From a virus: DNA of 64,000 nucleotides. Positions 11,266 through 41,384 of the stretch are shown here, piece after piece. A program made the position numbers and the translations under genes. The first letter of the stretch is position 1, and every line of letters starts with the position of its first letter. The stretch is taken from positions 1-64,000 of IMG/VR virus record IMGVR_UViG_3300010149_000002; one strand, written 5' to 3'. The notes below the pieces were generated by a model. It did no database searches, had not been told where the DNA came from, and saw nothing but the letters and a program-made list of their open reading frames with translations.

Positions 11266-11294
11266 TTGACATATATAATAGTATTTAGTATTAT
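11266..11294 (+). promoter_or_regulatory. Sigma-70-type promoter, divergent from the late promoter
   Basis: TTGACA-17-TATTAT upstream of an AGGAGG RBS. Confidence 0.7.
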
Positions 11295-11310: not shown

Positions 11311-14258
11311 ATGCCAATTGGACATGTGAATACAGATTATATACTATTTCTTATAAATGATGAAGATGAAGCTGCTATTAAAGAGAAAGTAGAGGAGATT
11401 GCATTTGCTATAAAAATGGAATATAGGATGATACAAGATCTTGGGGAGGACATGTGGGAATTTTAATAGGATACTTATTAGGTTTTGCTTTTGCATGTAC
11501 TTATAGGTTTAATAAAATGGAAGGTGTAAGTAGTACGAAGATAATACTATCTAGTTTATTCTATCCTTTAGAATATATTATAGCTTTGTTTAATTTAGTA
11601 ACAGTTTTCTTTGGAGTCTACCTTGAGTTCCAAATTATGATTTTATTATCGGATAAAGAAAAAGAAAACATGACAGATAACGCACTACAGGCATTGCGTG
11701 ACAGACTTAACGAATTAGATGAAACAGAGGACGAAGATGAAGAAAAGTGACAGATGGTTAAAAGAATTGATGTCTATAGCACATATTCAAGGACTTACAT
11801 GGGCTGATGGTACTAATGCCAGAGAACAAGCCTTAAAGCAATGGGTAGATGATTGGATTGTAGAGTATAACTTTAATCAAGATATTATAAAAAAAGGATT
11901 GGATGCAGAGGAGATGAGATTTATTCAACATCACTGTGCAACTCAAGTAGGTGAGATGCTCATGGAAGAGTCCTCCTACTATAATCTTAGTAAGGATAAT
12001 GTATCAGTTAATGTCTTTACTTTAAGAAAAGGATAATAGATAGCCCTTTCGTTTTTCGTTTCACGAAAATACGAGGCTCCGACAAAGGTGTAATAATATG
12101 AAAACTTGGAAGGATTTTGAATTAGAAGTTGAAAAACTAGAACCACTTGACCCATTTCCACCAATGTACTATGTATGTTCTCATGGTGCAAGTGTTCGGT
12201 ATCCTGTATTGGTAAGTAAAGAAAATGCAGATTGGCTAAAGTCAGAGGGAGCAAAGGTTTACACAAGGGAAGAGTATCTAAACTTGAGGAAAAGATTATG
12301 AAAGAACAAGATTTAAAACTTTACATGAACAAAATAATGGAGTGTACCGTAGTAAAAACAACATTTTACACAGCTATAGGACAGTTTGAATTTACTGGAT
12401 CGCCAAAGGATTCTATGGTTAAGATGTCCGAATATATGATGTTATACGGTGATGTGATGTTCGATATTGAAAATATAAAGGTAAAAGAAATTGAAACTAC
12501 TAATAGTAATTCTGACAATAAGCACTAGATTACTCGCATTTGAGCCTTGTACTGCAGATTTTACTTTACTTACTATAAAAGGTCGTATAGAGTTAGGTAT
12601 AGCGTGTTCAACAGTATGGAAGCGTTATATAGTAATTTACCAAGAAGATAGACAGGAGATTTGGAAAAGATGGCTGATTTCAAACCAAAAGACGAAAAGT
12701 GTCCAGTATGCGATACCAAATGGACAAAGACAAACTTTGGAGCAAAAACATGGTACGACTGTAAACCATGTGGAAAGACTGCTGAAGACATTGTGGTTGT
12801 CAAATCCAAGGGTAAATCTGGTGGAACAAAAGAATACAAACTAGATAGCCTAGATGATTGGGAATCATTTATTGACATAATGAATATGGATGATGACTAT
12901 GATGGGTTATTCCAAATGGAGTATTTTGCTGATATAGAACCTAGAAAGGGACATAGTAGTTACATATCTCCAAATAAGAGATATAAAGTTAAGTACATGA
13001 CTAAGGCAGAGAAGTTTGAAATATGTAATGAATTAATGAGACAAGGTGTAATAGAAACTAATGAAGAGTTTTGGGATTTCCTACAAGGGGTGTAATATGA
13101 AAGAAAGAACTAAAGTAAAATTTGAAGACACAGACATAGCAACTGGTAATAGAAACGTCATTCATGGTACTATAGAGGCATTTAATGGCGACTATGTGTT
13201 TGTTGTAGGTTCTGATAACAAGTTCTATAAAGTATTTTATAATGAGCTAACTTATGTGGGGAGAGTATAATATGTTTAATGTAGGTGATAAAGTTTATTT
13301 TACTGATCCAGAAGATGGCAACATTCCTGCAGGATCGATTGGCATTATACAATCTCCAGAGAGCTATGATTGTTTCAATGTTAAGTTTGATAATATCAGA
13401 CACAGAAACCCATATGTCGATAGTGAAACTTGGCTATGTTGTGGGACTAATTTAGAATTAGTCCCAAAAGACCCTCAGAAGCCTTCAGACGATCTAACCC
13501 TTACCATACCATTAGTTGAGGGTGCAGATTACCTTAGAGGGCGATTTACGGACTCTAGAGGGGATGTTTATAGTGTACATGTAGAGAAGATTCAGTGTTT
13601 AGCCCAAAAAGAAGTGTAATATGAATACAACAATCAGTAATTTATATAAAGATATTAAAAATACATTAGTTATGCCACATAAGCTATATCGACACCTATA
13701 TGTTGAGTTTGAAAAGGACATATTAACTTGGACAGACCATAGTAAAGGGTATATATGTAATAAAAGGTCACTACATGGTATGGATTTAGAATCCAGTGCT
13801 TGGTGTGAAGAAAATTATGCGTATTATTGGGACAAACAAGGTAATGTACATAGTTTGATTATAGATTGGGACAAAGGAGTATTTAATGTTCCATCCGTTT
13901 GAGGATAAAGAAGAAGTAGAGAAGATTAAAAAAGAAAGGGATGATCTATTGCGACAATTAGAATCCTATGATATGGTAGATAGTGAGAAACGATTTCTAA
14001 TCAGAAGAATAGAGGTTATAACAGAGAAGCTTTTAGAAAAAGCTAAGTACTCTAAGAAGGAGTAATATGTTAGAAGTACTTAGAATAATTATATTAACAT
14101 GTCAGATATCTGGAAACAATCCATTTATTGTTAATAAAGAACAAAAAAAATGCCAAAGAGAGCTAATTGAATGTGTAGACAGTGTAAAAGTTAGTTCCGA
14201 CAAAGGGGGCAGTTGGGGATCTGAAAGACTAATAGAATGTATAAAGGATAGACAATGA
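11311..14258 (+). CDS. Operon of about 12 small hypothetical proteins (including ORFs 11311-11466 and 13886-14065, absent from the track)
   Basis: Tightly packed + ORFs with RBSs; ORF 12661-13095 has CxxC..CxxC. Confidence 0.55.
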
Positions 14259-14697: not shown

Positions 14698-14928
14698 ATG
14701 TATAAAATTTCTACAAAAGATATTGCAAAGGCAGTATTTAACTTAGGAAGAAGAAGCCCTACTAGTAAATATTTAGATATAGCTATAGAAATTTCGACAC
14801 TTGCAGAGCATTTTAAAGAAGAACCACCTAAAGGACTGTTCCCAATGTCATACCACACATTAGATTATGAAAAAGAATTAAAATACCACAATAGACTAAA
14901 AGAGTTAGTTGATAGATATAAAGTGTAA
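14698..14928 (+). CDS. Hypothetical protein
   Basis: 76 aa with AGGAG RBS. Confidence 0.55.
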   Translation: MYKISTKDIAKAVFNLGRRSPTSKYLDIAIEISTLAEHFKEEPPKGLFPMSYHTLDYEKELKYHNRLKELVDRYKV

Positions 14929-15005
14929 TAAAATAATATTGTAGACACGCACTCTCACACCCTAGTGGACACATCACACACACTCAGAAACCCTCACCCC
15001 TCCCC

Positions 15006-15061
15006 TGCAAGAACCATGCCAAAAACTTGGCATCATAATTGCATAGCAAGATACATGCCAA
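15006..15061. promoter_or_regulatory. Three abutting sigma-54 (-24/-12) boxes in alternating orientation
   Basis: Minus TTGGCATGGTTCTTGCA (15006-15022), plus TTGGCATCATAATTGCA (15027-15043), minus TTGGCATGTATCTTGCT (15045-15061); all GG-N10-GC. Confidence 0.75.
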
Positions 15062-15106
15062 CTCTCCTTAAGAAAACTTTAGCTGACAAACATATATTGT
15101 TTACAA

Positions 15107-15510
15107 AGAATATACGCACATGCCTACTATGTTGGGCAATGGACAACATCGGACTAAACATATTCTATTGAACTGCCACATATAGTTGGCTTACAGAATA
15201 CCCTCTAGAATCCATTTAAAAGAATTATATGATACCAAGGTAGGGTAAAATCTAAATGGATTGTAGGGCTATTTATGGGACGATAAGACATTGTCAAGAA
15301 CTTTATTAAAATGCGAGTAAAGTAAATGCGAGTTGACATTCAGGTTTTATGTCTTGTCAAGGGAATAATGCAATGTGAGTAATGAATCTAAATTGCTCGT
15401 ATTGATAAATGCGAGTTGTTGCTCACATTATAATTTGCTATATTGAATGTATAACATAACGCAACACGTTATTAACTACTAAAGGAGATTTATTTATGAA
15501 AAAATCATTT
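15107..15510 (+). repeat. Diverged duplicated regulatory module, copy 1
   Basis: Shares ordered sequence blocks with 16408-16765 (see findings). Confidence 0.75.
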
Positions 15511-15666
15511 AGCGACTCGAGAATTAAAGAAGCTCAAAGACTACTAGAAAACGCTTTAAATGCTCAAAATGAGCAGGAAATTAAAGAAGAGCTTAATGAG
15601 GTTAGACTCAAGGTTAGTACTCTTTTGGCTCAATTAGGACATGACTTTAACAAGGTAGGTGCATAA
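15496..15666 (+). CDS. Small early protein, 56 aa
   Basis: Not in the track. AAGGAG RBS; MKKSFSDSRIKEAQRLLENAL... Confidence 0.65.
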   Translation: MKKSFSDSRIKEAQRLLENALNAQNEQEIKEELNEVRLKVSTLLAQLGHDFNKVGA

Positions 15667-15667
15667 T

Positions 15668-15835
15668 ATGGGACAAACAACCAATAAATTATTAGAGTTA
15701 TTAGATGAGGGTATTTTAAATAAAGATACTGTAATTATGGCTTGCTTAAAGTATATGAGTGAGGATGATGTTAACGATATGGCATTGTTAAATGAATTTA
15801 TTGAAGATACTAATGAATATCCTGAGAATTTATAG
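15668..15835 (+). CDS. Small acidic early protein, 55 aa
   Basis: Not in the track. MGQTTNKLLELLDEG...ACLKYMSEDDV; resembles a recurring small phage protein type. Confidence 0.6.
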   Translation: MGQTTNKLLELLDEGILNKDTVIMACLKYMSEDDVNDMALLNEFIEDTNEYPENL

Positions 15836-15939
15836 GGGGGGGTAATGAAAAGCTTAGATTATATAATAATATTTTTACAGATAATTGCTATAATAATCGG
15901 TATCACTATAATAATTAATCATTTTATAATTGTATAATA

Positions 15940-16343
15940 CATAAACACATAAACGGAATTTATTTAGTTCAATATCCTACCTTATAAAGTGCCATTTTCT
16001 TGTGGCGATCTATTAGTACACTTCATTACACTGAGCATGGATGCTTAAAGTGCCTTATATTTTGGGCATTAAAAGACTTACTAGTAGCCGAAAAATTCTA
16101 CTAATTTGGTCATTTAATACCTAAACACTTATTGTTTACTTTCATGTTTGGCTTTAGCTATCGAGCTATTTATATAGTCATTTTATTTAGAGATTGCATA
16201 CTAAATAAAACTTATTGAGGCGTTCGGCAAGGTACTTAATCTCTCGACACCTTGTGATATACTAAACAGATTTTGTTTAGTGAGGCTATCCTAGTCGGCT
16301 CTCTCATGCAATTCTTATGCCATTTTTTAACCGTCCTCAATAT
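15940..16343 (+). ncRNA. Putative structured non-coding RNA, about 400 nt
   Basis: No substantial ORF; about 10 hairpins plus a long-range TATTGAGG/CCTCAATA stem; G-U pairs favour the + strand. Confidence 0.45.
16307..16322 (-). promoter_or_regulatory. Sigma-54 box
   Basis: Minus strand TGGCATAAGAATTGCA. Confidence 0.65.
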
Positions 16344-16359
16344 TACTATAGTTGTTAAA
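16344..16359 (-). promoter_or_regulatory. Late promoter motif (copy 5), with no downstream ORF
   Basis: Exact 16-mer inside the non-coding region. Confidence 0.75.
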
Positions 16360-16407
16360 TAATCTTTATTTGTCAAGTTATTTATTAAACCATATAAATT
16401 TTATCAC

Positions 16408-16765
16408 AGAATATACGAATATGCCAACTATTTTTGTAAGGCTAATTTGTTCTCTAAGAGCTTTAAAAGTTTTTTGAATACTAGGTTAAGGATAAAATCT
16501 AAATGGATTCTAGCCTATATTGTGTGCCTTATAGGGCTATATAGTAAGATTGTTTAGAGTGTTTTTAGTCCGATAAAATCAAATGTGAGTTGACATTCAG
16601 TTTATACATAGTGTCAAGAAAAAAATGAAATGTGAGCTTTATATATCATTTTGCTCGCATTCTCTAAAAGTGAGTAAATATATATTGAATAATCATATTT
16701 AATTTGCTATAATGAATATAGAGATTAACGCAATAAATAAAGGAATTACATGAAAACATCATTTT
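16408..16765 (+). repeat. Diverged duplicated regulatory module, copy 2, ending in an extended -10 promoter (TGCTATAAT)
   Basis: Block-wise similarity to 15107-15510. Confidence 0.75.
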
Positions 16766-17304
16766 TAAAAGAAAGCGAAGTAAGTCAAATTTTAAATGCA
16801 AACGATAGAAAGTGTGACTATAATGTACATAGTGGTGGGCGTGTGATAGTTAATCATGAAGCAGGTGCATACAATAGTGGAACTATCAGAAAAGTGAAAG
16901 GACTTGACAATATCTATATTGCTTCATGCTCACTTGATTTTGGTGGTCAGCAATGGGTTGAAGTTTACGATAAAAGAGACTTAAATGTAATAGCTTATTT
17001 AAAGTCTGTAAGGACTTTAACAGAATTAAAAAACAGTGAAAAAGCCCAAGAGGAGTTAAAAAATATTAACGATAATTTAATTTGCTTAGAAAATAAAGGA
17101 GTAGTATAAATGACACCTAATGAAAAAATGAATTTAAGGCATGAAGTTTGGTTTTCACTATCTACAAACCAAAGAAGAAAGTTAACTTCAAATGGAATTT
17201 ATGCAAATAATTTATATGATTGTCCAGTGTGGTTAATTGTAAAAGTTACACGTTCTAAAAAAATAATGGATAAGATGCGTAAAATATGGAAATGGTGGAC
17301 TTAA
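16750..17304 (+). CDS. Two hypothetical early proteins (16750-17109, 17110-17304)
   Basis: ORF track; RBSs present. Confidence 0.6.
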
Positions 17305-17316
17305 GGCGGTGGCATA

Positions 17317-17838
17317 ATGAAATTACAGATTGATAATACATTTAACTTTGAACAAAGAAAAGTTATTGATAAATATTTTGAAATTGCAAAGGAAAAATTT
17401 AATATTCAAGACAAAATAATTTCTATTGAGATTAAAAATAGTGGTCGATTAAAAACAAGTGCAGGAAATGCAACAATTTATAGAATAAAGAATTGTGGGA
17501 TTATTAAAATGAATAAAAGACTGTTTAATAGTACAGTAGGAATAAAAGAATTTGAAAACACATTTTCGCATGAGCTTGCCCATGTTATAGCTAATATAAT
17601 TCATAATTGTAATTGTGGACATGATGCAAGATGGAAAAGGACTCATATAGCCCTTGGCGGTAATGCAAAAAGGACTCATAACTATGATGTGAGTCATTTA
17701 AGACCTACTAAAAATCGTTTTGACTATAAGTGTAATTGTCAAATTTTTAAATTAAGTGCAGTAAGGCACAATAAAATGCAAAATGGTAAAGCAAAGTATT
17801 ACTGTAAAAAATGTAAAGAGTATCTAAAAAGAGTGTAA
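17317..17838 (+). CDS. SprT-like zinc metalloprotease
   Basis: 'LKTSAG.A', HELAH, 'GHDARWK', C-terminal CxC...CxxC. Confidence 0.85.
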   Translation: MKLQIDNTFNFEQRKVIDKYFEIAKEKFNIQDKIISIEIKNSGRLKTSAGNATIYRIKNCGIIKMNKRLFNSTVGIKEFENTFSHELAHVIANIIHNCNCGHDARWKRTHIALGGNAKRTHNYDVSHLRPTKNRFDYKCNCQIFKLSAVRHNKMQNGKAKYYCKKCKEYLKRV

Positions 17839-17882
17839 TTTTTACATAGTATATTGATGCAATGAATAAAAACTGATATAAT
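17834..17882 (+). promoter_or_regulatory. Early promoter with upstream TGTAA-N3-TTACA box
   Basis: TGTAATTTTTACATAGT, then TTGATG-17-TATAAT with TG extension. Confidence 0.75.
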
Positions 17883-17915
17883 AATTATAGAGAATAACAC
17901 AAAGGAGATAAAAAA

Positions 17916-19202
17916 ATGAATAATTACAAAGAAAACGGATTCAAAGATAGAAACGATTATTTAGACTTTTTAGCAGATGATTATGGTGTAAGTGCTTATC
18001 AAGTTCATGTGATTGCTCAAATGCTAGGGGAGTCAGAAGATTTTGACGGATTAATAACAAGTATTCAAGACTTAAGCGAAGGATTATAATGGAAAATTTA
18101 AGATACATTAAAACTAAAGAGAATTTTAAAAAAGATCAGATTGTTCAATTAACTGAACCTGATAAAGATAATCAAATTGTTAGACGTTATAGAGTTATTA
18201 TGTCAAGTGATTTATTTACAGATGAGAGTGATTTATATTATACAATTTTAGAAGAGATAAAAGGAAAGGTGCAATAATGAATAAAGAGCAATTAAAAATG
18301 ATGATAAAAAGCGTTAGGACTGATTTAGAGCTATTCAAGTCAAGCGGACAAGTCTATCTACTAGAAAGGATTGAAAGCAATATAAGAGCTTTAAAAGACT
18401 GGAGAAATAACCTAGCATTAAAAGGTAATGAAACAATAAAAGAGCGTATGTTATGGGCGATTTAATGCCAATTTTTGTGGGCATCTTTATGTGGTGGGTT
18501 ATTATGTCAATTGTAGAAGGTGATAAAAAAGGTAGGTAATTTTTACATAGTTCATTGACGCAATACAGATAATTTGATATAATATTTATAAGGAAAGTTA
18601 CTCGGACTCATGGAAGAGTCATTTTAAAGGAGATTAAAAAATGAATACAGAATTAAATAAAAATCAATTTACTAATAAAGTCGATAAAAGATTGAATGAA
18701 ATAATGGACGGTGTAAATTTTAGCACGTTATTAGATGAGGCGTGGGATTATGTTTGCGAAGTTCATAATGTATATGATGGGCAATTTAGTGAGTCTGATG
18801 AGCATGAAATTGAAAGGGAGCTGCATAAAAGGCATGGTTTTGATATGAGTTGGTATGATAAATTCAATCCAAGTCCACAGAAAAAAGCTGAAATTGCACA
18901 AAGAAAAATGAGTCAACTAGAAAAGTTTAGGCTTGAACAAGATCAAATAATGGATATGTATAAGGGTGGTGATTTTGATGAATAAATATGAGCAAATAAA
19001 ATTAGTTGAGGAGTCAGATTTTGTACTAAATGATATTTATTTAGGTTATTCAGAGTTTTGGGACAAGGTAAACGAAATTGATTTAGACCCTGAAAAACTT
19101 ACATTGTATGAAAAAGATATAGACATACTATATGATGCTCTAGTAGACTATATAAAGTTTAGAAGTAATTATAAAAATACATTAAAGGAGCTTATAAAAT
19201 GA
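17916..19202 (+). CDS. Cluster of small early proteins (17916-18089 not in the track; 18089-18277; 18277-18465; 18641-18985; about 18978-19202)
   Basis: RBS-led ORFs; the first carries 'Y.ENG..R.DYL..LADDYG...LG..EDFDGL'. Confidence 0.6.
18536..18583 (+). promoter_or_regulatory. Early promoter with upstream box
   Basis: GTAATTTTTACATAGT, then TTGACG-17-TATAAT. Confidence 0.8.
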
Positions 19203-19972
19203 TACAAATTAAAAATAGATTTACAGGTAATGTTATTAGAGAAGTTGAAAGTCTTAGTGAAGCTAATCTTAGGGGAGCTAATCTTAGGGGAGCTGATCTT
19301 AGTGAAGCTGATCTTAGGGGAGCTAATCTTAGGGGAGCTAATCTTAGGGGAGCTAATCTTAGTGAAGCTGATCTTAGTGAAGCTGATCTTAGTGAAGCTA
19401 ATCTTAGGGGAGCTGATCTTAGTGAAGCTAATCTTAGTGAAGCTAATCTTAGGGGAGCTAATCTTAGGGGAGCTGATCTTAGTGAAGCTGATCTTAGGGG
19501 AGCTAATCTTATGGTAGCTAATCTTAGTGAAGCTAATCTTAGTGAAGCTAATCTTAGTGAAGCTGATCTTATGGTAGCTAATCTTAGTGAAGCTAATCTT
19601 AGTGAAGCTAATCTTAGGGGAGCTAATCTTAGGGGAGCTGATCTTAGTGAAGCTGATCTTAGGGGAGCTAATCTTAGGGGAGCTAATCTTAGTGAAGCTG
19701 ATCTTAGTGAAGCTGATCTTAGTGAAGCTAATCTTAGGGGAGCTGATCTCGAAAAATGTAAAGGTATTCTATCATTTACTTGTGAAAAGCATTTAGGAAT
19801 ATATTTTAAATACGATAATGAATATTATTTTAAGATTGGTTGCATGACTAATACTGCTAAATGGTGGTTAGATAACTATAAAATAGTTGGTAAGATTGAA
19901 GAATATAGCGATAATGATATTAAAAAACATGGTATTATTTTAGAAGCTTATAGTAAAATAGAATTAGAATAA
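19199..19972 (+). CDS. Pentapeptide-repeat protein
   Basis: About 33 A(N/D)L(RG/SE/MV) repeats between '[10 protein letters not shown]' and a 'KIGC' C-terminal domain. Confidence 0.92.
19253..19750 (+). repeat. 15-bp coding tandem repeat GCTRATCTTAGKGRA
   Basis: Directly visible; encodes the pentapeptide repeats. Confidence 0.95.
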
Positions 19973-19990
19973 ACTAAAGGAGTTTATAAA

Positions 19991-20194
19991 ATGAAAATAG
20001 AGGACAAAGAATTTTTTGATTTTGAATTAGATGGCATCAATTTTGCAGACTATCCAGACTTCTGTGATGCGTTTATAATTAATGCCAGTGTAGTTGATGG
20101 GAGTGAACCAAGAAAAGCCACAGATAGCGAATTAGAGCTTCTCAATGATGATTCTAGTCTAGTCTATGAGCTTGTAATGGAGCAGATTTTTTAA
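19991..20194 (+). CDS. Acidic hypothetical protein
   Basis: 'DGI...DYPDFCDAFI..A......R.AT..ELE.LN' motif of a recurring small phage protein type. Confidence 0.65.
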   Translation: MKIEDKEFFDFELDGINFADYPDFCDAFIINASVVDGSEPRKATDSELELLNDDSSLVYELVMEQIF

Positions 20195-20201
20195 AATACC
20201 C

Positions 20202-20251
20202 TGTAATTTTTTCATACTGCTATTGACGCAATACAGATAATATTAGATAAT
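20202..20251 (+). promoter_or_regulatory. Early promoter with upstream box
   Basis: TGTAATTTTTTCATA, then TTGACG-17-GATAAT. Confidence 0.7.
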
Positions 20252-20278
20252 AAATACAGAAATAAAGGAGAAATAAAC

Positions 20279-20860
20279 ATGACACAATTATTCACAAGAA
20301 ATGGAAAGCTAAAAAAAGCAAGTGCATATACTGTAAATTTTGGAATACCTGCTTTAAAGACTTGCCCAATGAAGGATGTATGCGGTAAATATTGTTATGC
20401 TAATAAAGGTGCGTATAGTTGGCCAGTAGTTAAAAAAGCTTATGAGCATAGATTTCAGCAGACTAGACGAGCTGACTTTCCACAGATTGCAGTTAAAGCA
20501 TTATCTAAAAAACGTAAACTAGAAAAAGTTAGAATACATGATAGCGGTGATTTTTACAATAAAGAATACCTTTACAAGTGGTTTAAGATTGCAGAGTCTA
20601 TGCCAGATAAAGAGTTTTACGCATACACTAAGCAAGTAAAGCTTTTAAAAGACAATTGGACTAATAAGCCTAGCAATCTTACTATCATCTTTTCAATAGG
20701 CGGTAAACAAGATTCATTGATTGACCAAAATATTGACAGGCATAGTAAAATTTTCAAAACACTTGAAGAGCTTAACGCATCGGGTTATAATGATACAAGT
20801 GATGATGATACCCAAGCGGTCAATCCAGAAAATCACAAAGTAGGGCTAGTAATTCACTAA
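20279..20860 (+). CDS. Gp88-like protein (radical-SAM-like Cys motif)
   Basis: TCP....C...CYA, RIHDSGDFY, FYAYTK. Confidence 0.75.
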   Translation: MTQLFTRNGKLKKASAYTVNFGIPALKTCPMKDVCGKYCYANKGAYSWPVVKKAYEHRFQQTRRADFPQIAVKALSKKRKLEKVRIHDSGDFYNKEYLYKWFKIAESMPDKEFYAYTKQVKLLKDNWTNKPSNLTIIFSIGGKQDSLIDQNIDRHSKIFKTLEELNASGYNDTSDDDTQAVNPENHKVGLVIH

Positions 20861-20875
20861 AAAGGAGATATAAAA

Positions 20876-21124
20876 ATGAACAAAAAACTATTCAAAAACT
20901 TAGTAGGTAACAAATTTTTTACAGTAGTCTTTAGAAAAAAAGACGGTACACTTAGAACAATGAACGCAAGGCTAGGCGTTAAAAAGCATTTAAAGGGCGG
21001 TAAAAAGCTCTATGATAAGGCTAACCTTGTAACAGTGTATGATATCACTAAAAAAGGTTATAGGACTGTAAACCTTGACAGCGTTCAAGAGATCAAAGCT
21101 AGTGGGCTTAAGGTAACAGTTTAA
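20876..21124 (+). CDS. Small SH3/WYL-like fold protein
   Basis: FFTVVFRKKDGTLRTMNARLGV...VYD..KKGYRTV. Confidence 0.6.
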   Translation: MNKKLFKNLVGNKFFTVVFRKKDGTLRTMNARLGVKKHLKGGKKLYDKANLVTVYDITKKGYRTVNLDSVQEIKASGLKVTV

Positions 21125-21403
21125 TGGTTAAGGTTATACAAGGTTTATTTTTAACGTACTATTTAATTTATATTGTGTGAGGTAACAATGACTAAACAAG
21201 ATTTATTGACATTATATAATTTATCTAAAAATATAGATGGACTTGAGAACGTCTATGACTTCATATCAGGCGTTTATGAAATTGCCTATGGTGATCATGC
21301 TATTAATAAAAATTACAGCTCAGAAGAAGTTTTACAGCGTATACAGGACTTTTCAGATGATGCCTTGACTTATGAAACGTATCATAAACTTAGTAAAAAG
21401 AAT

Positions 21404-21457
21404 ACTATGTAAAAATTACATAGTTCGGTTGACGCAAAGCACAATACATGAGATAAT
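21404..21457 (+). promoter_or_regulatory. Early promoter with perfect palindrome ACTATGTAA-N3-TTACATAGT
   Basis: Palindrome at 21404-21424, then TTGACG-17-GATAAT. Confidence 0.75.
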
Positions 21458-21488
21458 AATTAAGAGTTAAACTAAAGGAGAATAACAC

Positions 21489-23576
21489 ATGATTAACATT
21501 CAAGAAAAAGTAGACGTAACAAAAAGTCAGGAATTTACAGGCAATCAAATGAGCATTGACCCTGAATTTTTTAATAAAATGATTTGGCTTGTTATTAAGC
21601 AATATAAGTATAAGGTTAGAACATCATTACAAGAGCTAATTTCTAATGCTCAAGATGCTCAAGTTGAAGCAGGTAATGGTGATAGAAAATTAAAAATAAC
21701 TTTACCGACAAAATTAGAACCGACTTTCAAGCTTCGTGATTTTGGCACAGGTATGACACCAGACGTTATCAATAAAATTTATTGTAACATGGGGGCATCT
21801 GGTAGCTCACACACTAATGCAAAAAAGGGTGGTTTTGGTATTGGTGGAAAATCTCCTTTAGGTTTTTGTGACCAGTATAATATCAAGACTTATGTTGACG
21901 GTACGTTTTGGTATTATGCTGTTTACAAAAATGAACTAAACGGAATTAATGTTGATTTAGTTCATACTGGAGATACCACAGAAGAAAACGGCACAGAAAT
22001 TATTATACCATCTAAAAGGGATCAACTAGAACAGTTTAAAAATGGTGCAGTAAGAGCGACATATTTTTGGGATAATCAGCCTATTTTTAATTTTGAAATG
22101 CCTAAACGTCCTAAAGGTATTAAAATTAGTGATAAATTTACAGTATACAATGGCAGAGAATTTGCAAGTAATTTAGGGCTATCCAGTTCTTATTATTCAG
22201 CACAGGGTATTGTTATTTTAGTTGATGGTATACCTTATCTAGTTGAAAGCGATATGTTAAGGCAATGTGATGAACTTAAAAAAGCTGATAATATTTTATC
22301 AAGTAATTCAGTTTTAGTTTATAAAATTGGTAATGGCGAATTAAAAGTGCTTCAAACTAGGGAATCATTAGAAGAGTGTGAATACACATTCAATAGACTA
22401 AATAAAATTGGTTTAGACATTCAAAAAGAGTTTAAAAGGTATTCTAACGAGCTTTTAAAACCTACTATAATTGACACCTATAAAGCATATAAAGAAGCTA
22501 TAGAGTTATTTACAGGGCTTCCAAGTATTGATTTTAATGCTCATGTAAAGATTAATAGAAACGGTATCATGTACTTAAATGATCTTACTAAACAAGATAA
22601 CTTTTTATTTGAAGCGGTAGAGTATCATTACAGATCACAAAGGTATAGACAAGTATTAACAAATTCTAAAAGAGAAAATAAAACCTTTCAACAATTACCA
22701 TTAGATAAACTAAACAGTTTTTATTTAGATGATATTGGTGATACAGAAAGTGAGCAAATGAAAGCTAGACGTTGTAAGCATTTTATTGAACCATCTAAAG
22801 GAGAGATCACATACATTAAAAAAACTGATATGCCCACAGAGCTTTATAATTTACTTCTAAACGAATTAGAATTAAACGTGATATCTAGCCTACCTTTGCC
22901 TCCTAAAAAGGCTAAGACAAAGAATACAAGCACTAAAAAAACGCTTGATAAAGGTAAGATTGATATTCACATTGTTGAAAGAAGTACAGCATGGGGAAGT
23001 AATGCTTATGTAAGAAATTGTAGAACAATTGACCTAAATAAAAACCTTGATAATAAAATACTATGGTGCGATTATTCGACTAGCACAATGTATGATGCAA
23101 GAGATTATGTTGATTTTTTCAAGTCCAAAGGTTTTTTATTTGGATTTGTTTCTAAGAAATACCAAACTAAGATTAAAAATGACGATAGGTTTATGCAAGT
23201 AGATGAGTTTATGAATAATCTAAGCTTTACAACAGAAGAAAAAGAATATATGATTCAAAAAGGAGCGTATGCATATGGCGGTTATAGAGATAATGATATC
23301 ATAAACCAAAAGCTTGCTATCATGGTAAAAAGAGTTAGTTCTAAAAAAATTAGAGCAATGATTAATGATGTAATGCGTCCTAAAAAAGAATTAGATATTC
23401 CACGTAATTTATATTGGGATATGCAAGATCAATTAAAAGACGAGATAAAAGAGAGAAATGACAAGGCTGATATGCTTGGCAAGTATTTAAAAAGGAGATA
23501 TCCTAAATTTAAAAACAATGACGATTTAGATTATATTAACAGAGTAAACAAAACTTATTTACAAGGGAGATTCTAA
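21489..23576 (+). CDS. rIIA: rIIA-like protein (N-terminal GHKL ATPase)
   Basis: ELISNAQDA, RDFGTGM, GGFGIGGKSP, NGTEI, 'RESL'; paired with an rIIB-like gene. Confidence 0.85.
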   Translation: MINIQEKVDVTKSQEFTGNQMSIDPEFFNKMIWLVIKQYKYKVRTSLQELISNAQDAQVEAGNGDRKLKITLPTKLEPTFKLRDFGTGMTPDVINKIYCNMGASGSSHTNAKKGGFGIGGKSPLGFCDQYNIKTYVDGTFWYYAVYKNELNGINVDLVHTGDTTEENGTEIIIPSKRDQLEQFKNGAVRATYFWDNQPIFNFEMPKRPKGIKISDKFTVYNGREFASNLGLSSSYYSAQGIVILVDGIPYLVESDMLRQCDELKKADNILSSNSVLVYKIGNGELKVLQTRESLEECEYTFNRLNKIGLDIQKEFKRYSNELLKPTIIDTYKAYKEAIELFTGLPSIDFNAHVKINRNGIMYLNDLTKQDNFLFEAVEYHYRSQRYRQVLTNSKRENKTFQQLPLDKLNSFYLDDIGDTESEQMKARRCKHFIEPSKGEITYIKKTDMPTELYNLLLNELELNVISSLPLPPKKAKTKNTSTKKTLDKGKIDIHIVERSTAWGSNAYVRNCRTIDLNKNLDNKILWCDYSTSTMYDARDYVDFFKSKGFLFGFVSKKYQTKIKNDDRFMQVDEFMNNLSFTTEEKEYMIQKGAYAYGGYRDNDIINQKLAIMVKRVSSKKIRAMINDVMRPKKELDIPRNLYWDMQDQLKDEIKERNDKADMLGKYLKRRYPKFKNNDDLDYINRVNKTYLQGRF

Positions 23577-23577
23577 T

Positions 23578-24330
23578 ATGAATTACATTATGACACCACA
23601 GGGAGTTACACTAAGTTACGAAGGAAATTTTATCACAATAGCAGAGGGAGATCATCGCTACAATGCGATCTTAGAGGCTATCAAAGATGGTAGGCTAGAG
23701 GATGTACCAAGTCTTGTAGACGTTTCTAAGACGTTCTCAGAGGTTGAGGGAGTCGATCTAGTAGATGGTCACATCTATATTAATGACAAGAAAATTCCAG
23801 AGGTCTTAACTGATAGGGTATTGAACTTTAAAGACAAGGGGTTGCCCTTTGAACCATTAATGAAATTTGCTGAGAAGCTTATGGAGAACCCAAGTTATAA
23901 CTCAAGGCTTATGCTTTACAAGTTCTTAGAACATAACGGACACCCTATCACAAAAGATGGCAACTTTATTGCATACAAAAAAGTTAGAAGAGACTTTACA
24001 GATTGTCACACAGGTAAGATGGATAACAGTGTTGGCATGATTGTTGCAATGCCAAGAGAAGAAGTTGATGATAATCCAGACAATACTTGCTCTAGTGGGC
24101 TTCACGTTGCTGCATATAACTATGCTAATACGTTCTCACAAGGTCACTTGTTAGAAGTCGAGATTGACCCTAAAGACGTTGTAGCCGTTCCTAATGACTA
24201 TGATGGTGAGAAAATGAGAGTATGTAAGTATGTTGTAAAGAAAATTTGTGAGTCAAGACTTGATGATGTTGACTTATATGAACTATGTGACGAATATCTA
24301 GATGAACAGTTAAATGAATGGGGGTATTAA
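23578..24330 (+). CDS. rIIB: rIIB-like protein
   Basis: ENPS...LYKFL...ITKDGNFIAYK...MPREEVDDNPDNTCSSGLH...DVVAVPNDY..KMRVCKY. Confidence 0.88.
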   Translation: MNYIMTPQGVTLSYEGNFITIAEGDHRYNAILEAIKDGRLEDVPSLVDVSKTFSEVEGVDLVDGHIYINDKKIPEVLTDRVLNFKDKGLPFEPLMKFAEKLMENPSYNSRLMLYKFLEHNGHPITKDGNFIAYKKVRRDFTDCHTGKMDNSVGMIVAMPREEVDDNPDNTCSSGLHVAAYNYANTFSQGHLLEVEIDPKDVVAVPNDYDGEKMRVCKYVVKKICESRLDDVDLYELCDEYLDEQLNEWGY

Positions 24331-24952
24331 AATGATTATTGGTGAAAGACTAAATAAATTTGATTTAGAGACAGATGGTACACTAAAAAGCTTCAATGAA
24401 ATATTTGCAGAGTGTCCTGTAAAGCTTGACGTTAGTCCTGAGAGCGTTTTAGAGATAGGGGATATAGTAGGTACAGGCAAAGAAAATGTAAGGTATCTAA
24501 ACTTAGATGGCGAGCAAATTACCCATGTATTTGAAAAGGAAAGGTATTTCAAACCAGATGCAGATTTTGGGATGAAAGGTAACACTGGAATAAGAGCACA
24601 TTATAAACTAGAAAATACAAAGACAGGTGAGGTATTTGAAGCTAATAAATTATCAGAATTAGCAGAAATATCAGGCGTACCTCATTATAGAGTAGGTAAA
24701 ATAAGCTCAGGATCGATAAAGTGCGATACTTTTAAGATCACAAAACGTAAAGCAAGTAAGAAACCTAAAAAGGACATTAAGCCTAAAAAAGAATGGATGT
24801 ATTTTGTGACAAAAGGTAATGAGGAACATAGATTCAAACTTGCAAAAGAAGTTGCAAAGTTTTTAAACGTATCTAAAATAACAGTATCTTTTTATACAAC
24901 AAAAAAATGGAATAACTCACAAGGTTGGTCGGTAGACAGGAGAAAAGTATAA
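24314..24952 (+). CDS. Hypothetical DNA-binding protein (two HTH/NUMOD-like units)
   Basis: 'LSELAEISGV' and 'AKEVAKFLNVS' segments. Confidence 0.45.
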   Translation: MNGGIKMIIGERLNKFDLETDGTLKSFNEIFAECPVKLDVSPESVLEIGDIVGTGKENVRYLNLDGEQITHVFEKERYFKPDADFGMKGNTGIRAHYKLENTKTGEVFEANKLSELAEISGVPHYRVGKISSGSIKCDTFKITKRKASKKPKKDIKPKKEWMYFVTKGNEEHRFKLAKEVAKFLNVSKITVSFYTTKKWNNSQGWSVDRRKV

Positions 24953-25176
24953 TGGAAACAATTGTAAAATATAACAACAGAAAATTATACAGTAAAAAAT
25001 GTAAGCACTATGTAAACAATTCTTATTTAATTGATCTAATAAGACTTGGACATACTTTTGAGATCAAAGAACATAAAACCGACCAAGACGTAACTGGCAC
25101 AGTTCTTGCAAGTTGTATTAGTGACTTGAACCTTGATGGTGTCAAGTTGACAAATTTCATCAAGGAGAATTTATAA
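24952..25176 (+). CDS. PhaR/AniA-type (PHB accumulation regulator) N-terminal DNA-binding domain protein
   Basis: IVKYNNRKLY...YV....DLIR.G..F.I.EHKT.QDVT..VL matches the IKKY.NRRLY..YVT...D..TGEDIT pattern. Confidence 0.75.
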   Translation: METIVKYNNRKLYSKKCKHYVNNSYLIDLIRLGHTFEIKEHKTDQDVTGTVLASCISDLNLDGVKLTNFIKENL

Positions 25177-26380
25177 TGAATATCTTAGACTTCCTTACAA
25201 TGATGCAGACAAGTTTATTTGCAAAAGGCTTAGATACAACAGTGTCAATTGGCAGCAAGGTGACACTGGAAATAGAGGACGTAGAGAGTTCTAAGACGGT
25301 TGCAGTAATAACAGGTGATACACTAGAAGAAGCCTATGCAAACCTATTAGGAGCTATGTCAGGAGCTGTGAGAGACACTAAAACAGGACGCTATCAAGGT
25401 CTATCGAGGTTATAATGATCAATAAAAAAGACTTAATAGAAGCAATAGAAGCAATTTCAAATACTTTAGAAGCTAATGGGTTAGACACTTTTGTATTAGA
25501 CCAGTACATTAATAATCAAAAAATTATAATATGGGAAGAAGAAACAGGAGAAGGTTTGTAATGATTATAGTAAAGCTTGTATTAATTGTCTCACTGTGTT
25601 ATCTTATAGGAAGAGGACTTTCTAGAGAGCTAGAAAGAGAAGCAGATGAGGCTAAAAAGCAGACAAAGGACATTAGGAATAAATCTAAAGAAGCTTATCA
25701 ACTTATGCAAGCTGAAAAGAGAGTCTTAGTGAATACAATTAATGAACTTAGAGAAGAGATTGACACTTTAAAGAAGCTTAATAGGAGACTAAAGTGACTA
25801 ATAAAGAGCTGCTTGATATGTTTAGGTCATCTAGTTACTTAAACTTTATGAAGTTCTTAGAAAATGAGATAGAATTTGTAGATGAATACCCATGTGCTTT
25901 TTGTAAAGATAAACCATGTGGAGAAGATCATTGTGATAGAAACAAGGAGTATGATAATGAATCCAACGATTAGACAGTTTATGGTAGCTGTATTTTGCAC
26001 AGTGTTGCTTGCCAGTTGTGCAGTTAGATTGCCAGAGCGATCTAATGTTAAAAAGAAAAAGCCAAAGAATCATATAAGCAAGATGAAGGAATGTGTTGAT
26101 GCCTTTATGAATGATCATGGTGTAGGTATTGAAGAAGCTTTTAATACTTGTGAAAAGATTTATAGGAGGTAATATGACACCCATTGAAAGCTATCATAGA
26201 TATAAAAACACACAATGGTATAGAAGTTATCGTAAAAAGTTTGAAAAAGGCTATAGAGAAGAGAATAGAATCATGTGGAATTTAAAGTCATGGAAATCTA
26301 TGAGAAAGAAATATGGAAAGACAACTTCCCTAAAACAAGAGTTTGAATACTTAATGATAAGAACTTTAAGAGATTTATAG
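25176..26380 (+). CDS. Several small hypothetical proteins, including membrane/lipoprotein-like ORFs
   Basis: ORF track; 'LLASC' lipobox-like motif in 25882-26172. Confidence 0.5.
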
Positions 26381-26543
26381 GAGATAGTATGCTTCATCTA
26401 ATATACAAAGATACAAATTGTATTCTTTACACAGGTACTAAAAAAGAACTTGCAAAGATTATGGAAAACTTATATAATAATTGTAGGAGTCATTATAAAG
26501 TGGTTTCTAAGCAGTATATAAAAGAATTAGATTGGGAGTTTTA

Positions 26544-27527
26544 ATGAAAAACATAAGACTGTCACACTCCGCAGCAGAAAAGTTTAAAACCTGCGGAGCA
26601 CTTTATCGCCATCATTACGTTGATCGTATAAGACCAGTTGCAATGGGAAGTGCTCTTTTTTTTGGATCGGCAGTTGATGAGGCATTGAATGTTTTATTAG
26701 GATCTAAGAAACAGATTGTCACCTATAAATTTGACGAGAGTGTTAGTGTTTTGCAACATGCTTATGACGAATTTGATACGTTGTGGTGTGAGCAATTAGA
26801 AAATAAAAATGTAGAATACTTCAAGTCAGATATTGATCTAAGTGTTTTACTTGATATTGATTTAGAAGATATTTCAGAGTTTGATAAAGAAGTAGAAAAC
26901 ATTGAAGAGTTTTTAAAAGAATGTTTCACTATTCTAAAAAATAAAGAAAAATTGTGTGAAGAGGATCAAGCATTGTATAATAGAATAGCTTGGCATAGTT
27001 TATATAGAAAAGGCATGATGCTCATTGAAGCATATAATAATGACATTATGCCACAAATCCATACAGTATTTGATATCCAAAGGAAAGTAGAACTACCGGA
27101 TGAGCATGGCAACCTTTTAATAGGCTATATAGATGCCGTAGTTAGCTTTATAGACGCTCCAGATAGAAAGGTGATACTTGATAACAAGACAAGTTCAAAG
27201 CCGTACAAGGACGATTCTGTATCGACTTCTCCACAGCTTGCAACTTATTGTGAAAGTGAGGGTATAGAGTACGGTGCGTTTGGTGTTGTAGAGAAAGCCA
27301 TAAGAAAAAGAGAGCCAAGAACTAGGACTCAATTAATTATTGATAAAATTCCTGAGAAATTACTTGACGAAACATTTGAAATGTATGATAATGTTTTAGA
27401 GGGCATTGAGAATGAAGAGTTTGATAAGAACTATGACTCTGGATGTTTTTTCTATGGTAAACCTTGTAGTTACTATGCGTACTGTAGAAGTAATGGTAAG
27501 AATAAAGATGGATTGGAGGAAGTATAA
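26544..27527 (+). CDS. PD-(D/E)XK exonuclease (RecB/Cas4-like)
   Basis: LSHS..KFKTC, FGSAVD, GYID...ILDNKTS, QLATY, C-terminal C..C.Y..YC. Confidence 0.85.
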   Translation: MKNIRLSHSAAEKFKTCGALYRHHYVDRIRPVAMGSALFFGSAVDEALNVLLGSKKQIVTYKFDESVSVLQHAYDEFDTLWCEQLENKNVEYFKSDIDLSVLLDIDLEDISEFDKEVENIEEFLKECFTILKNKEKLCEEDQALYNRIAWHSLYRKGMMLIEAYNNDIMPQIHTVFDIQRKVELPDEHGNLLIGYIDAVVSFIDAPDRKVILDNKTSSKPYKDDSVSTSPQLATYCESEGIEYGAFGVVEKAIRKREPRTRTQLIIDKIPEKLLDETFEMYDNVLEGIENEEFDKNYDSGCFFYGKPCSYYAYCRSNGKNKDGLEEV

Positions 27528-28295
27528 TGGCACAATTAGAGAAACTAAAAAAAGCAGACCTTGTAAAGCTTGCTAGAGAACTTAAGCAAGATAACAAGCT
27601 TTTAAAAAAAGAACTAGAGAATGTTCAGTCAGGCGAGCTAGATGATTCTAAGCTACCGTTATATGCTCATACCTACTACAAAGACGGTGACAAGCATGTT
27701 GTAGACGTTATGAAGTACTCTCCAGAATCAAACAATGTAAAAGTCATTGAGAAGATTGTAGAGAATACTAAAGAGCTTGCATTGTTCAAATTAGAAATGG
27801 TAATTGTAGATAAATTTCATCAACAAGTATATGAAAGGAGTAATAATGAGTAAACTAACAGAACTACTAAACTCTAGGCACCAAGACCTAGACTTTGAAC
27901 TAGGAACATTACACAGTCTATATCAATTAGCTAACAATGTTGCAAAAAAACTAGATGTAGAGGCAGAAGCCAATACAGTACTAACTGCAATGCAAAATAG
28001 ACTAATGGATAAACTAAATGTTGACATTGAGGACATTGCAGAAGATGAAGAAATTGACGTAGAGGACTTAGACTTTGCAGTTATTTATGACCATTTAGGT
28101 ACAGCATTTTTTCATGCAAAGACTGAAATGGCATCATACTTGCAGTTTGACAGTACACTAAATAATCTAAAAAGACTTGGTGCTACAGATGACGAAGTGG
28201 AAAAATTACAGGGTTTCAAAAAAAGACTTGAAAGAACAATATTTGACAGGTATGATGTAACTGAGGATGATCTTAAGGAGGATGGAGATGAATAA
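27527..28295 (+). CDS. Two hypothetical proteins (27527-27853, about 27846-28295)
   Basis: ORF track. Confidence 0.55.
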
Positions 28296-28866
28296 GTTTT
28301 TAAAAAAAGTTGCAGAAATTCAACAAACGCTAAAAGCACCAAAGAATCAATTTAATAAATTTGGAGGATATGCTTATAGAAATTGTGAGGATATACTAGA
28401 AGCAGTAAAACCTTTACTTGGCGACCTAGTTTTAACTGTTAGCGATAAGATTATCACAGTTGGAGAAGGCGAGGACATGAGAGTATATGTTGAGGCTACT
28501 GCTAAAGTAACTAACGGAGAAGAAGTATTAGAAAATACAGCGTCAGCCAGAGAACCATTAGACCAAAAAGGGATGAACGAGGCACAGATAACAGGTAGTG
28601 CAAGTTCATATGCTAGAAAGTATGCACTAAATGGATTGTTTCTAATTGATGATACCAAAGATGCTGATGCAACTAATGATCATGGTAAGGGAGAAGCTAA
28701 AAAAACTTCTACAAGAAAGAAAAAAGAAGATACTAAAGAAAAGCCAAAAAGAACTAGAACAAAAAAAGAAGAGCCAAAGGAAGAACCAGAGGCTAAGGAA
28801 GAGTCTAAAGAAGAACCAGAAGAAAAACCAAAGAAACGTGGAAGAGGTTTTAGGAGAAAAGGATAA
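28288..28866 (+). CDS. erf: ERF-family single-strand annealing protein
   Basis: KAPKNQFNKFGGYAYRNCEDILEAVKP...AQITGSASSYARKYALNGLFLIDDTKDAD. Confidence 0.92.
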   Translation: MNKFLKKVAEIQQTLKAPKNQFNKFGGYAYRNCEDILEAVKPLLGDLVLTVSDKIITVGEGEDMRVYVEATAKVTNGEEVLENTASAREPLDQKGMNEAQITGSASSYARKYALNGLFLIDDTKDADATNDHGKGEAKKTSTRKKKEDTKEKPKRTRTKKEEPKEEPEAKEESKEEPEEKPKKRGRGFRRKG

Positions 28867-37507: not shown

Positions 37508-37634
37508 CAGACCAATTCAAGGGTTATGCTAAGAAGCGGTACATAATAAGTTACAGGTGTCACATACCTCCTCGATTCAGTAATACTAGTTATATTTTGA
37601 ACGGGTTTAAAAATTGTGAGTTGGTCGCTGACCA
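37508..37634 (+). ncRNA. Putative structured RNA of about 125 nt ending in ACCA
   Basis: Closing stem GACCAATTCA/TGAGTTGGTC, internal hairpins, no ORF; lies between the promoter and the tRNA-like gene. Confidence 0.45.
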
Positions 37635-37640
37635 TTTTAT

Positions 37641-37748
37641 CGAAATGTAGCTCAGTTGGTTAGAGCACCTGACTATGAAGCAAGCGACTAGGTAACGAAA
37701 TCGTGAGGCGGAGGGAGGTCGGTGGTTCGATTCCACCCATTTCGACCA
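37641..37748 (+). tRNA. tRNA-like RNA (Pro-type acceptor) with an expanded, non-canonical anticodon arm
   Basis: Acceptor CGAAATG/CATTTCG-A-CCA, D arm GCTC-AGTTGGTTA-GAGC, T arm GGTGG-TTCGATT-CCACC; 108 nt; no canonical anticodon stem-loop. Confidence 0.8.
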
Positions 37749-40893: not shown

Positions 40894-40894
40894 G

Positions 40895-40923
40895 TTGACA
40901 TAATTAAGCTCTTTTATTATAAT
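40895..40923 (+). promoter_or_regulatory. Consensus sigma-70 promoter for the HNH gene, overlapping an RBS-sequestering hairpin
   Basis: TTGACA-17-TATAAT; stem 40906-40918 / 40928-40940. Confidence 0.8.
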
Positions 40924-40940
40924 ATAAAATAGGAGGGCTT

Positions 40941-41384
40941 ATGTCATTTAAGATTATAGAAAAAGATCCTTACAATTCAAAAAAAAGATTTAAGTTACTG
41001 ATTAAGTCAGCTAAAAAAAGAAATATATCAGTAAACTTTAGTTTAGATCATTACAGAGATCTTTTAAAATTAGGATGTATATACTGTGGTGTCAATGTGA
41101 AAAAAGAACAAGGCTATTGTATAGATAGACACGATAACTCTAAAGGTTATTTATTAGACAATGTTGCAACTTGTTGTAAAATATGTAACAGAGCAAAAGG
41201 AACTATGGATAATAATGATTTTTTAGATTGGGTAAAAAGAGCATATAAGTTTCAAGAGGGTATGTTTGAAAAGGCAAAAAAACATAGTTATACTGAGTTA
41301 CAGTTTAAGAAGGATTTAAAAAGATTAGAAAACGGATCTTACTATAGAAACTCTAATGTAGAAAAAATAGAAGGTAATAGATGA
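40941..41384 (+). CDS. HNH-type endonuclease
   Basis: SAKKRNI, CIYCG, IDRHDNSKGY..DNVATCCKICNRAKG. Confidence 0.85.
   Translation: MSFKIIEKDPYNSKKRFKLLIKSAKKRNISVNFSLDHYRDLLKLGCIYCGVNVKKEQGYCIDRHDNSKGYLLDNVATCCKICNRAKGTMDNNDFLDWVKRAYKFQEGMFEKAKKHSYTELQFKKDLKRLENGSYYRNSNVEKIEGNR

Follow-up and report, generated by a model that had tools for sequence, protein, structure and literature searches.

Alone among bacterial sigma factors, sigma-54 binds DNA stably without starting transcription, for which it requires an ATPase. The use of host sigma-54 by a phage and the occurrence of sigma-54 sites inside genes are both known already, and the role of sigma-54 in phage biology is almost unexplored. 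Here we describe ten sigma-54-type boxes in the early region of the virus recorded as IMGVR_UViG_3300010149_000002; the window, i.e., the whole stretch of DNA analysed, comprises the first 64 kb (positions 1 to 64,000) of this complete 78,841-bp record (33.5% GC), which closes on itself via a short end overlap. The boxes form a real, selected and unusual system of cis-elements of the sigma-54 type, through which the phage very probably recruits, as far as sequence can tell, the sigma-54 polymerase of its host, a strategy documented for only one cultured phage.

That phage is YuA, whose promoters were the only phage sigma-54 case found in the literature, in which no description of sigma-54 box arrays in phages was found either. 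The YuA promoters depend on sigma-54, are of the -24/-12 type and show promoter-trap activity (Ceyssens et al., 2008, as cited in PMC10914365). YuA resembles the phage considered here in being virulent, in lacking a bacterial enhancer-binding protein (bEBP) of its own, in relying (very probably, in the present case) on host sigma-54, and in that its promoters, like the coding boxes here, point with the genes; one YuA promoter is annotated inside a coding region (40888-41035 in GenBank NC_010116). In contrast to the ten near-consensus boxes of the early block and the palindromic non-coding cluster found here, YuA has three isolated weak-consensus promoters in its late virion/lysis region, none of which matches the strict pattern. 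The locus does not follow the YuA arrangement, since no sigma-54 box precedes a late gene and the late genes use another, invariant motif.

The second point of comparison is provided by the chromosomes of Escherichia coli and Salmonella (Bonocora et al., 2015, PMC4591121). Intragenic sites make up 62% of all sigma-54 sites in E. coli, 68% of them are in the sense orientation and some drive downstream mRNAs; the E. coli and Salmonella intragenic sites are bound as inactive closed complexes, and some of them promote downstream genes (PMC4591121). The boxes of the phage are alike in lying inside genes, mostly in sense, and in being conserved at the DNA level. They differ in density, with ten in 13 kb of phage DNA against about one per 17-35 kb of chromosome, and in including clear recent gains by amino-acid change as well as a back-to-back/face-to-face cluster. 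The iss region of T5-like phages, finally, consists of untranslated repeats with eight DnaA boxes, and an injection stop has been hypothesised for it (Davison, 2020, bioRxiv 10.1101/866236); the likeness here is that of a large untranslated region, rich in repeats and palindromes, which comes after a first operon of small early genes and in which putative sites for a host DNA-binding protein form an array.

Ten strict boxes in a single early block

The strict sigma-54 pattern, TGGCA-N6-TTGCW, has exactly ten matches (Table 1), and in all ten GG and GC lie exactly 10 bp apart, as they do in -24/-12 promoters (TGGCAC-N5-TTGCW). All of them stand where a first-pass annotation, made by a model from the letters alone, had placed them, and its statement that no strict site lies outside 15-28.2 kb extends to the remainder of the 78,841-bp genome, which holds no further one. 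Dinucleotide shuffles yield a mean of 0.20 strict sites and a maximum of 2, which agrees with the rough earlier estimate of well under one site by chance. On a circle of 78.8 kb, ten sites would by chance share a span of 13.1 kb with an estimated probability of about 1e-6 (from n(w/L)^(n-1)). The strict boxes are bounded by the 15.0-kb cluster on one side and by a hairpin-U tract at 30.1 kb on the other. The four weaker variants that had been listed are present as well, three of them as given in Table 1 and the fourth at 33142. Four strict boxes are non-coding, as had been claimed: the only open reading frame (ORF) that spans the cluster, 14965-15171, was discounted because non-triplet indels disrupt it in the relative L053.

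Table 1. Positions of the sigma-54-type boxes and of the promoters, genes and other features discussed in the text
Feature	Position	Strand	Context	Relative L053
Strict box TGGCATGGTTCTTGCA	15006..15021	-	Left half of back-to-back pair	Kept, spacer bases changed
Strict box TGGCATCATAATTGCA	15028..15043	+	Right of back-to-back pair, left of face-to-face pair	Kept
Strict box TGGCATGTATCTTGCT	15045..15060	-	Faces 15028(+), starts 17 bp apart	Deleted
Strict box TGGCATAAGAATTGCA	16307..16322	-	Untranslated region, 21 nt downstream of orphan late-promoter motif	
Strict box	20032..20047	+ (sense)	67-aa ORF 19991-20194, peptide D-G-I-N-F-A	
Strict box	22151..22166	+ (sense)	rIIA, peptide N-G-R-E-F-A	
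Strict box	23958..23973	+ (sense)	rIIB, peptide D-G-N-F-I-A	
Strict box	24033..24048	+ (sense)	rIIB, peptide V-G-M-I-V-A	
Strict box	25095..25110	+ (sense)	ORF 24925-25176, 66 nt before the Shine-Dalgarno (SD)-ATG of gene 25176-25415	
Strict box	28129..28144	+ (sense)	ORF 27831-28295, 123 nt before start of erf-like gene	
Weaker variant	13316..13331	+	CTGCA at -12	
Weaker variant	20590..20605	-	CTGCA at -12, antisense in gene 20279-20860	
Weaker variant	26019..26034	-	CTGCA at -12, antisense	
C/A-rich, G-poor tract	14943..15005	+	End of first early operon, abutting cluster	Same composition
TTGA[CT]GCAA...-GATAAT/TATAAT promoter	17854-17882, 18555-18583, 20223-20251, 21429-21457		Preceded by TTTTTACATAGT; before early/middle genes including rIIA	
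Late-promoter motif TTAACAACTATAGTA, invariant, 15 nt, 7 perfect copies	1917, 3496, 8202, 11240, 16344, 57314, 63133	- (all)		
Orphan late-promoter motif TTAACAACTATAGTA	16344..16358	-	Points at box 16307(-)	2-mismatch version
rIIA	21489-23576	+		
rIIB	23578-24330	+		
Exonuclease	26532-27527	+		
Erf-like annealing protein	28267-28866	+		

Selection on the six coding boxes

The codon-shuffled control that had been proposed for the boxes inside genes sets them far above the null. Where six coding sites are observed, shuffles that preserve the codons average 0.64 over the genome and 0.49 within 16.75-30 kb; their maximum is 4, and none of 2000 shuffles reaches 6. The comparison of synonymous positions among relatives, also proposed earlier, was equally positive for the box at 23958, whose 16 nucleotides and six codons are all identical in L126, L127 and L128. 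The rIIB proteins of these three are 66-75% identical to that of the phage, and over the whole gene just 35-59% of the conserved residues are encoded by identical codons, so that six codons would be identical by chance with a background probability of 0.002-0.04 for each pair; in L127, five of the six codons that flank the box differ synonymously. This site is old.

Four other coding boxes are derived, having arisen via amino-acid replacements or an insertion. At 20032, where L053 reads N-G-I-N-T-N, the TTGCA half arose via the two replacements that turn T-N into F-A. The -12 half of the box at 22151 lies inside a 4-codon insertion, and three relatives are without this insertion; the relative L125 has its own strict box in rIIA, 36 nt upstream of the position of 22151, an independent gain. 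At 24033, the GC of the -12 element requires Ala, a residue that none of the compared rIIB relatives has at this place (mostly Glu, otherwise Ser or Thr). The GG and GC of the box at 25095 were created by N to G and S to A changes relative to L053 and L050, which agree with each other. The coding boxes are in part conserved and for the most part recent gains, and the comparisons show that selection acts on the boxes at the level of DNA. This evolutionary evidence is unusually clean, with boxes built by the replacement of conserved residues and by an insertion, and with one kept codon for codon.

An argument of a different kind carries less. The Gly codon GGC had been read as a sign of selection, and it is indeed uncommon, accounting for 147 of 1559 Gly codons (9.4%); the frame xxT-GGC shared by five coding boxes, however, says nothing, because the same frame is expected by chance (84 of 99 simulated sites). 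That five of the six coding boxes sit in this chance-favoured frame, together with the conservation of the D-G-x-F-[IL]-A peptide of rIIB, is what could be said for regarding the boxes as accidents, as a compositional artefact or as the by-product of conserved peptides. Such an origin is refuted by the ten sites where 0.2 are expected and by the codon-preserving shuffles, and relatives encode the same or similar peptides without the motif.

The non-coding cluster at 15.0 kb

The three boxes at 15.0 kb form a back-to-back pair (15006/15028), which is retained in L053 with 3 and 2 changes in the spacers, and a face-to-face pair, for which the spacing in other phages peaks at 18. Strict sites turn over, as 16307(-) and 15045(-) are both gone at well-aligned places in L053; in the case of 16307(-), the flanks of the homologous place are 78% identical. 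Relatives hold one to six strict sites, as compared with ten here, and most or all of these lie in one non-coding cluster of two to five boxes, such a cluster being present in each relative tested. The cluster is an old module, common to the relatives and, in its form, to many unrelated phages. In one relative (L124:5619-5705), the start of a small Cys-rich ORF on the plus strand is covered in antisense by a pair of sigma-54-type boxes on the minus strand, which stand 71 bp apart. A blastn search with the 67-bp cluster returned trivial matches only, and megablast of 14-30 kb detected no close relative among cultured phages.

The cluster opens a mostly untranslated region of 1.8 kb (14.93-16.75 kb), where a duplicated 350-bp module and numerous repeats are accompanied by no more than two or three small ORFs. 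An Rfam scan of 14.5-17 kb detected nothing. On its left side it abuts the C/A-rich tract that ends the first early operon (30 C and 7 G in the adjoining 80 nt); any transcript from box 15006(-) would begin with the G-rich complement of this tract, and a G-run, GGGGAGGGGTGAGGG, stands directly downstream of this box in the leftward direction. C-rich or G-rich tracts are also found beside the clusters of L051, L049, the L013 family, L040/47, L041 and L036. A 51-aa minus-strand ORF behind box 15006(-), 14828-14983, was treated as spurious because it is not conserved in L053. Candidate roles for the cluster are those of a bidirectional promoter, of an insulator placed after a rut-like tract, of an anchor similar to the T5 iss and of an R-loop origin.

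R-loops at G-clusters prime DNA synthesis in ColE1, at oriF/oriG of T4 and at the mitochondrial CSB II. It is conceivable along these lines that the non-coding cluster is a replication origin, in which an outward-facing sigma-54 promoter reads into a G-cluster and the stable R-loop primes synthesis, the coding boxes being a separate matter. Besides the G-run next to 15006(-), this idea draws on runs of at least 5 G that lie downstream of outward-facing boxes in some six further contig lineages, in part unrelated (L053, L051, the L013 family, L040/47, L041 and L036), and on the position of the cluster in the largest untranslated region of the genome. G-runs are nevertheless not universal, a run of at least 4 G being present at 32 of 243 sites, and the cluster has neither DnaA boxes nor iterons, so that we regard an origin as improbable.

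Box arrays in other viral and bacterial contigs

When viral contigs were searched for the back-to-back architecture of 15006/15028 (TGCAA-N6-TGCCA-N4-8-TGGCA-N6-TTGCA), the pair was found in 49 contigs with GC contents of 29-66%, 40 of which carry three or more boxes. The viral cases are mostly arrays of 3-12 boxes, usually in alternating orientation, and this phage has its palindromic cluster architecture in common with dozens of unrelated contigs of viruses. Across these contigs and the present genome (243 boxes), the free positions show C/T followed by G on the 3' side of TGGCA, with C on the 5' side and T on the 3' side of TTGCA, and therefore reproduce the textbook sigma-54 consensus, TGGCACG-N4-TTGCW. 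Tandem arrays on a single strand occur too, which shows the unit to be the asymmetric sigma-54 box rather than a palindrome. A scan of 596 Gb of bacterial genomes with the same pair pattern gave 66 contigs, nearly all of them with plain pairs; these come from sigma-54-bearing phyla, and none from Actinomycetota or Cyanobacteriota. These two phyla are not known to carry rpoN. The bacterial divergent pairs have the same architecture as the pair at 15.0 kb, to which this phage, unlike them, adds dispersed coding sites.

The reader of the boxes is very likely the sigma-54 holoenzyme of the host, as judged from the consensus at the free positions, the asymmetric unit, the bacterial distribution, the lack of any protein family shared by all array-bearing contigs (the two largest groups span 10 and 8 of the 50) and the lack of an encoded sigma-54 DNA-binding domain, Sigma54_DBD (PF04552) having no match in this genome. 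Several of these observations argue at the same time against another reader, be it phage-encoded or a different host factor, for which the likeness to sigma-54 would be coincidence or mimicry. An oligomeric binder would be suited by the alternating arrays, which set TGGCA/TGCCA and TTGCA/TGCAA about 11 bp apart on one face of the helix. The missing common family, the constancy of the motif over 29-66% GC down to the sigma-54-specific C/T-G after TGGCA, and the asymmetry displayed by the tandem arrays leave little room for such a protein. The possibility that the motif is a Type I restriction target was also considered and dismissed, since phage genomes are depleted of such sites, whereas the boxes are enriched, and since one specificity would not extend across contigs of 29-66% GC.

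In one phage family (L022:2600-3000, and also L010, L028, L031, L038 and L042), five same-strand boxes within 350 bp, together with a divergent sixth, precede a gene of the GP88 family (PF17338), and the proximal box stands 28 nt before the SD-ATG of this gene, which is proper promoter geometry. Repeats of GGAAGAGCGCT between the boxes of these arrays could be enhancer sites. How the array sites of the 49 contigs are oriented with respect to neighbouring genes (97 in sense and 85 in antisense; 29 against 33) is uninformative, because crude ORF calls placed most arrays within spurious ORFs. Arrays lie within 700 bp of a contig end in 8 of 22 whole contigs, and in G002 and G004 too; suggestive as this is, nothing can be concluded from it about physical genome termini, because locus ends are not contig ends and palindromes break assemblies.

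Promoters or docking sites

The reading that we tentatively prefer takes the ten motifs as genuine -24/-12 elements, namely a non-coding cluster and six coding boxes that serve as internal conditional promoters. Selection would keep, and keep creating, boxes in the early/middle block (15.0-28.2 kb), and the holoenzyme would park at the coding boxes as a closed complex until an ATPase activator, either a host bEBP working without a phage-borne enhancer or an unrecognised phage factor, opened it. The downstream genes, i.e., rIIB and those that follow it, the 25176 gene and erf, would then be transcribed independently of the sigma-70-type promoters of the phage. The first-pass annotation had instead seen binding sites rather than ordinary promoters, a view not supported in this form: the coding boxes point with their genes and in two cases closely precede start codons, the GP88-family box stands ahead of its SD-ATG, and YuA sets a precedent with its rpoN-dependent promoters. 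Its wider proposal of a system that captures the sigma-54 holoenzyme is partly supported, in that the sites are real, beyond chance, confined to one early block, selected as DNA and of the sigma-54 type even at the free positions, and in that a bEBP gene is absent. If the boxes are promoters, phages could tie part of the early programme to a stress or nutrient signal of the host, or bypass their own shut-off of sigma-70, and the ten defined, recodable 16-bp elements offer a concrete experimental handle.

A number of observations weigh against the promoter reading. Of the four non-coding boxes, three point towards no gene; transcripts from 15006(-) and 15045(-) would enter the early operon in antisense, and face-to-face boxes 17-18 bp apart cannot both hold holoenzyme. 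Among the coding boxes, 22151 sits 1.4 kb from the next start codon, and the plus-strand orientation of all six, correctly noted before, is weak evidence on its own (p ~0.05), as the codon-usage null already expects 60% in sense. The block also possesses strong sigma-70-type promoters. As the first annotation had stated, no bEBP gene is visible: Sigma54_activat (PF00158) has no match in the genome, and of five relatives, four have none and the fifth only a weak generic AAA+ match. Nor did an enhancer emerge: from 30 to 220 nt upstream of eight sites, shared k-mers were no more frequent than in random site sets. Activation by a bEBP from an upstream enhancer is thus not what the genome displays, and a host bEBP acting from solution is possible.

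The same missing activator and enhancer speak for non-productive docking, in which the boxes hold the holoenzyme closed and never or rarely fire, and thereby sequester the scarce sigma-54 of the host, insulate or roadblock the border that separates the first early operon from the regulated region, or hold the entering DNA as proposed for T5. The element conserved in all relatives is, moreover, the orientation-symmetric non-coding cluster that faces no genes, which further burdens the promoter reading, and viral contigs have mostly alternating arrays where bacterial genomes have plain pairs. The position of the cluster directly after a C-rich, G-poor, rut-like tract at the operon end, at the opening of the untranslated region, would suit a boundary or anchor. 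The terminase and polymerase are distantly T5-like, and an untranslated repeat region follows the first early operon (14.93-16.75 kb) as in T5, where such a region with DnaA boxes is the proposed injection stop. The T5 analogy fails, however, on the DnaA boxes, of which the window has 24 one-mismatch matches against 20 expected, without any cluster and with none in 14.9-16.7 kb; nor were A1/A2 genes recognised in a PHROG scan of ten early ORFs, which gave no named function. Overlapping boxes would make a poor sponge, the intragenic sigma-54 complexes of E. coli were no roadblocks (PMC4591121), and a decoy leaves unexplained why the dispersed coding boxes are all in sense and why two of them stand just before gene starts. 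Docking as an account of all ten boxes is for these reasons rather unlikely, though it would represent, in the form of traps or anchors, a new way to manipulate host transcription or DNA entry.

As the evidence for promoters and the evidence against both stand, the two kinds of box are best read separately: the six sense coding boxes most likely act as conditional internal promoters, and the earlier ideas of capture, ratchet or shield are conceivable only for the orientation-symmetric non-coding cluster. A broader and more doubtful generalisation is that box arrays serve many phage lineages to seize the host sigma-54 holoenzyme and are no ordinary enhancer-dependent promoters, but an anchor, an insulator or an origin element on the DNA expressed first, or else a promoter class opened by an unrecognised phage factor that replaces the bEBP, and that in this phage they are actively spreading into coding sequence at an amino-acid cost. 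With such a phage factor, the appropriation of sigma-54 would be analogous to AsiA/MotA of T4.

Other promoters and the regulatory region

Transcription of the early block does not lack conventional signals. The first operon, which consists of small genes, is headed by a promoter of consensus sequence (TTGACA-17-TATTAT) at 11266, and a repeated sigma-70-type promoter, TTGACGCAAT...GATAAT/TATAAT, recurs at 17.85, 18.55, 20.22 and 21.43 kb. Six of the seven copies of the late-promoter motif precede virion genes, the orphan copy in the untranslated region being the seventh; its ACTATAG core resembles, as we presume, promoters of the T7/SP6 type. PF00940 (T7-type RNA polymerase) was not found in the genome, a weak negative given that the control of this search matched nowhere, and neither was Sigma70_r2.

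The duplicated module of about 350 bp lies at 15104-15464 and 16405-16733 and carries operator-like repeats (AAATGCGAGT/AAATGTGAGT) around a TTGACA promoter. Three AAACA-N7-TGTTT palindromes are located at 15088, 16123 and 16264. Between the two modules, the minus strand of 15930-16300, which is the target of both the orphan late motif and box 16307(-), folds somewhat better than shuffled sequences (z = -2.3) and is a possible non-coding RNA.

Genome organisation and host

The phage is tailed and virulent-looking. Virion and other late genes occupy the minus strand at 1-11.2 kb and 49-79 kb, and the plus strand carries one long gene block from 11.3 to 48.8 kb, which, in addition to the genes of Table 1, codes for a DnaB-like helicase, a primase, a family-A DNA polymerase and a ribonucleotide reductase-like protein. 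The rIIB protein is 65-75% identical in L124-L128, relatives from marine or estuarine samples, against 30-39% for its neighbours, rIIA and the 24925 gene, on the same contigs. The nearest cultured relatives are remote, with a PolA 47% identical to that of Flavobacterium phage immuto and a terminase with 30% identity to that of a Silvanigrella phage and about 25% to those of T5-like phages.

The boxes themselves are a clue to the host, which should encode rpoN. Other clues are the canonical -35/-10 promoters, SD sequences in 62% of genes, a ClpP nearest to clusters of Pseudomonadota, and the terminase, for which the Silvanigrella phage is the nearest match; the Silvanigrella phage shares only structural proteins at 25-45% identity and has one box. 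A Bacteroidota host, as the PolA match to the Flavobacterium phage might imply, is argued against by the canonical promoters and the frequent SD sequences, and the scan of bacterial genomes for the pair pattern brought up no relative of the phage.

In the distal part of the plus-strand block, two ClpP-like proteases and a protein with a dATP/dGTP diphosphohydrolase (MazZ-like) N-terminal domain are encoded at 43969-44493, 47163-47918 and 44842-45675. Despite the MazZ-like domain, this phage has neither PurZ (PF00709) nor DpdA/TGT (PF01702), and there is accordingly no evidence for Z-base or deazaguanine DNA. A tRNA-like gene with an expanded anticodon arm lies at 37641-37745 (+); ARAGORN finds nothing here, whereas the Rfam tRNA model scores 50.9 bits over 105 nt, and just upstream, at 37614-37666, there is a weak YrlA-like match.

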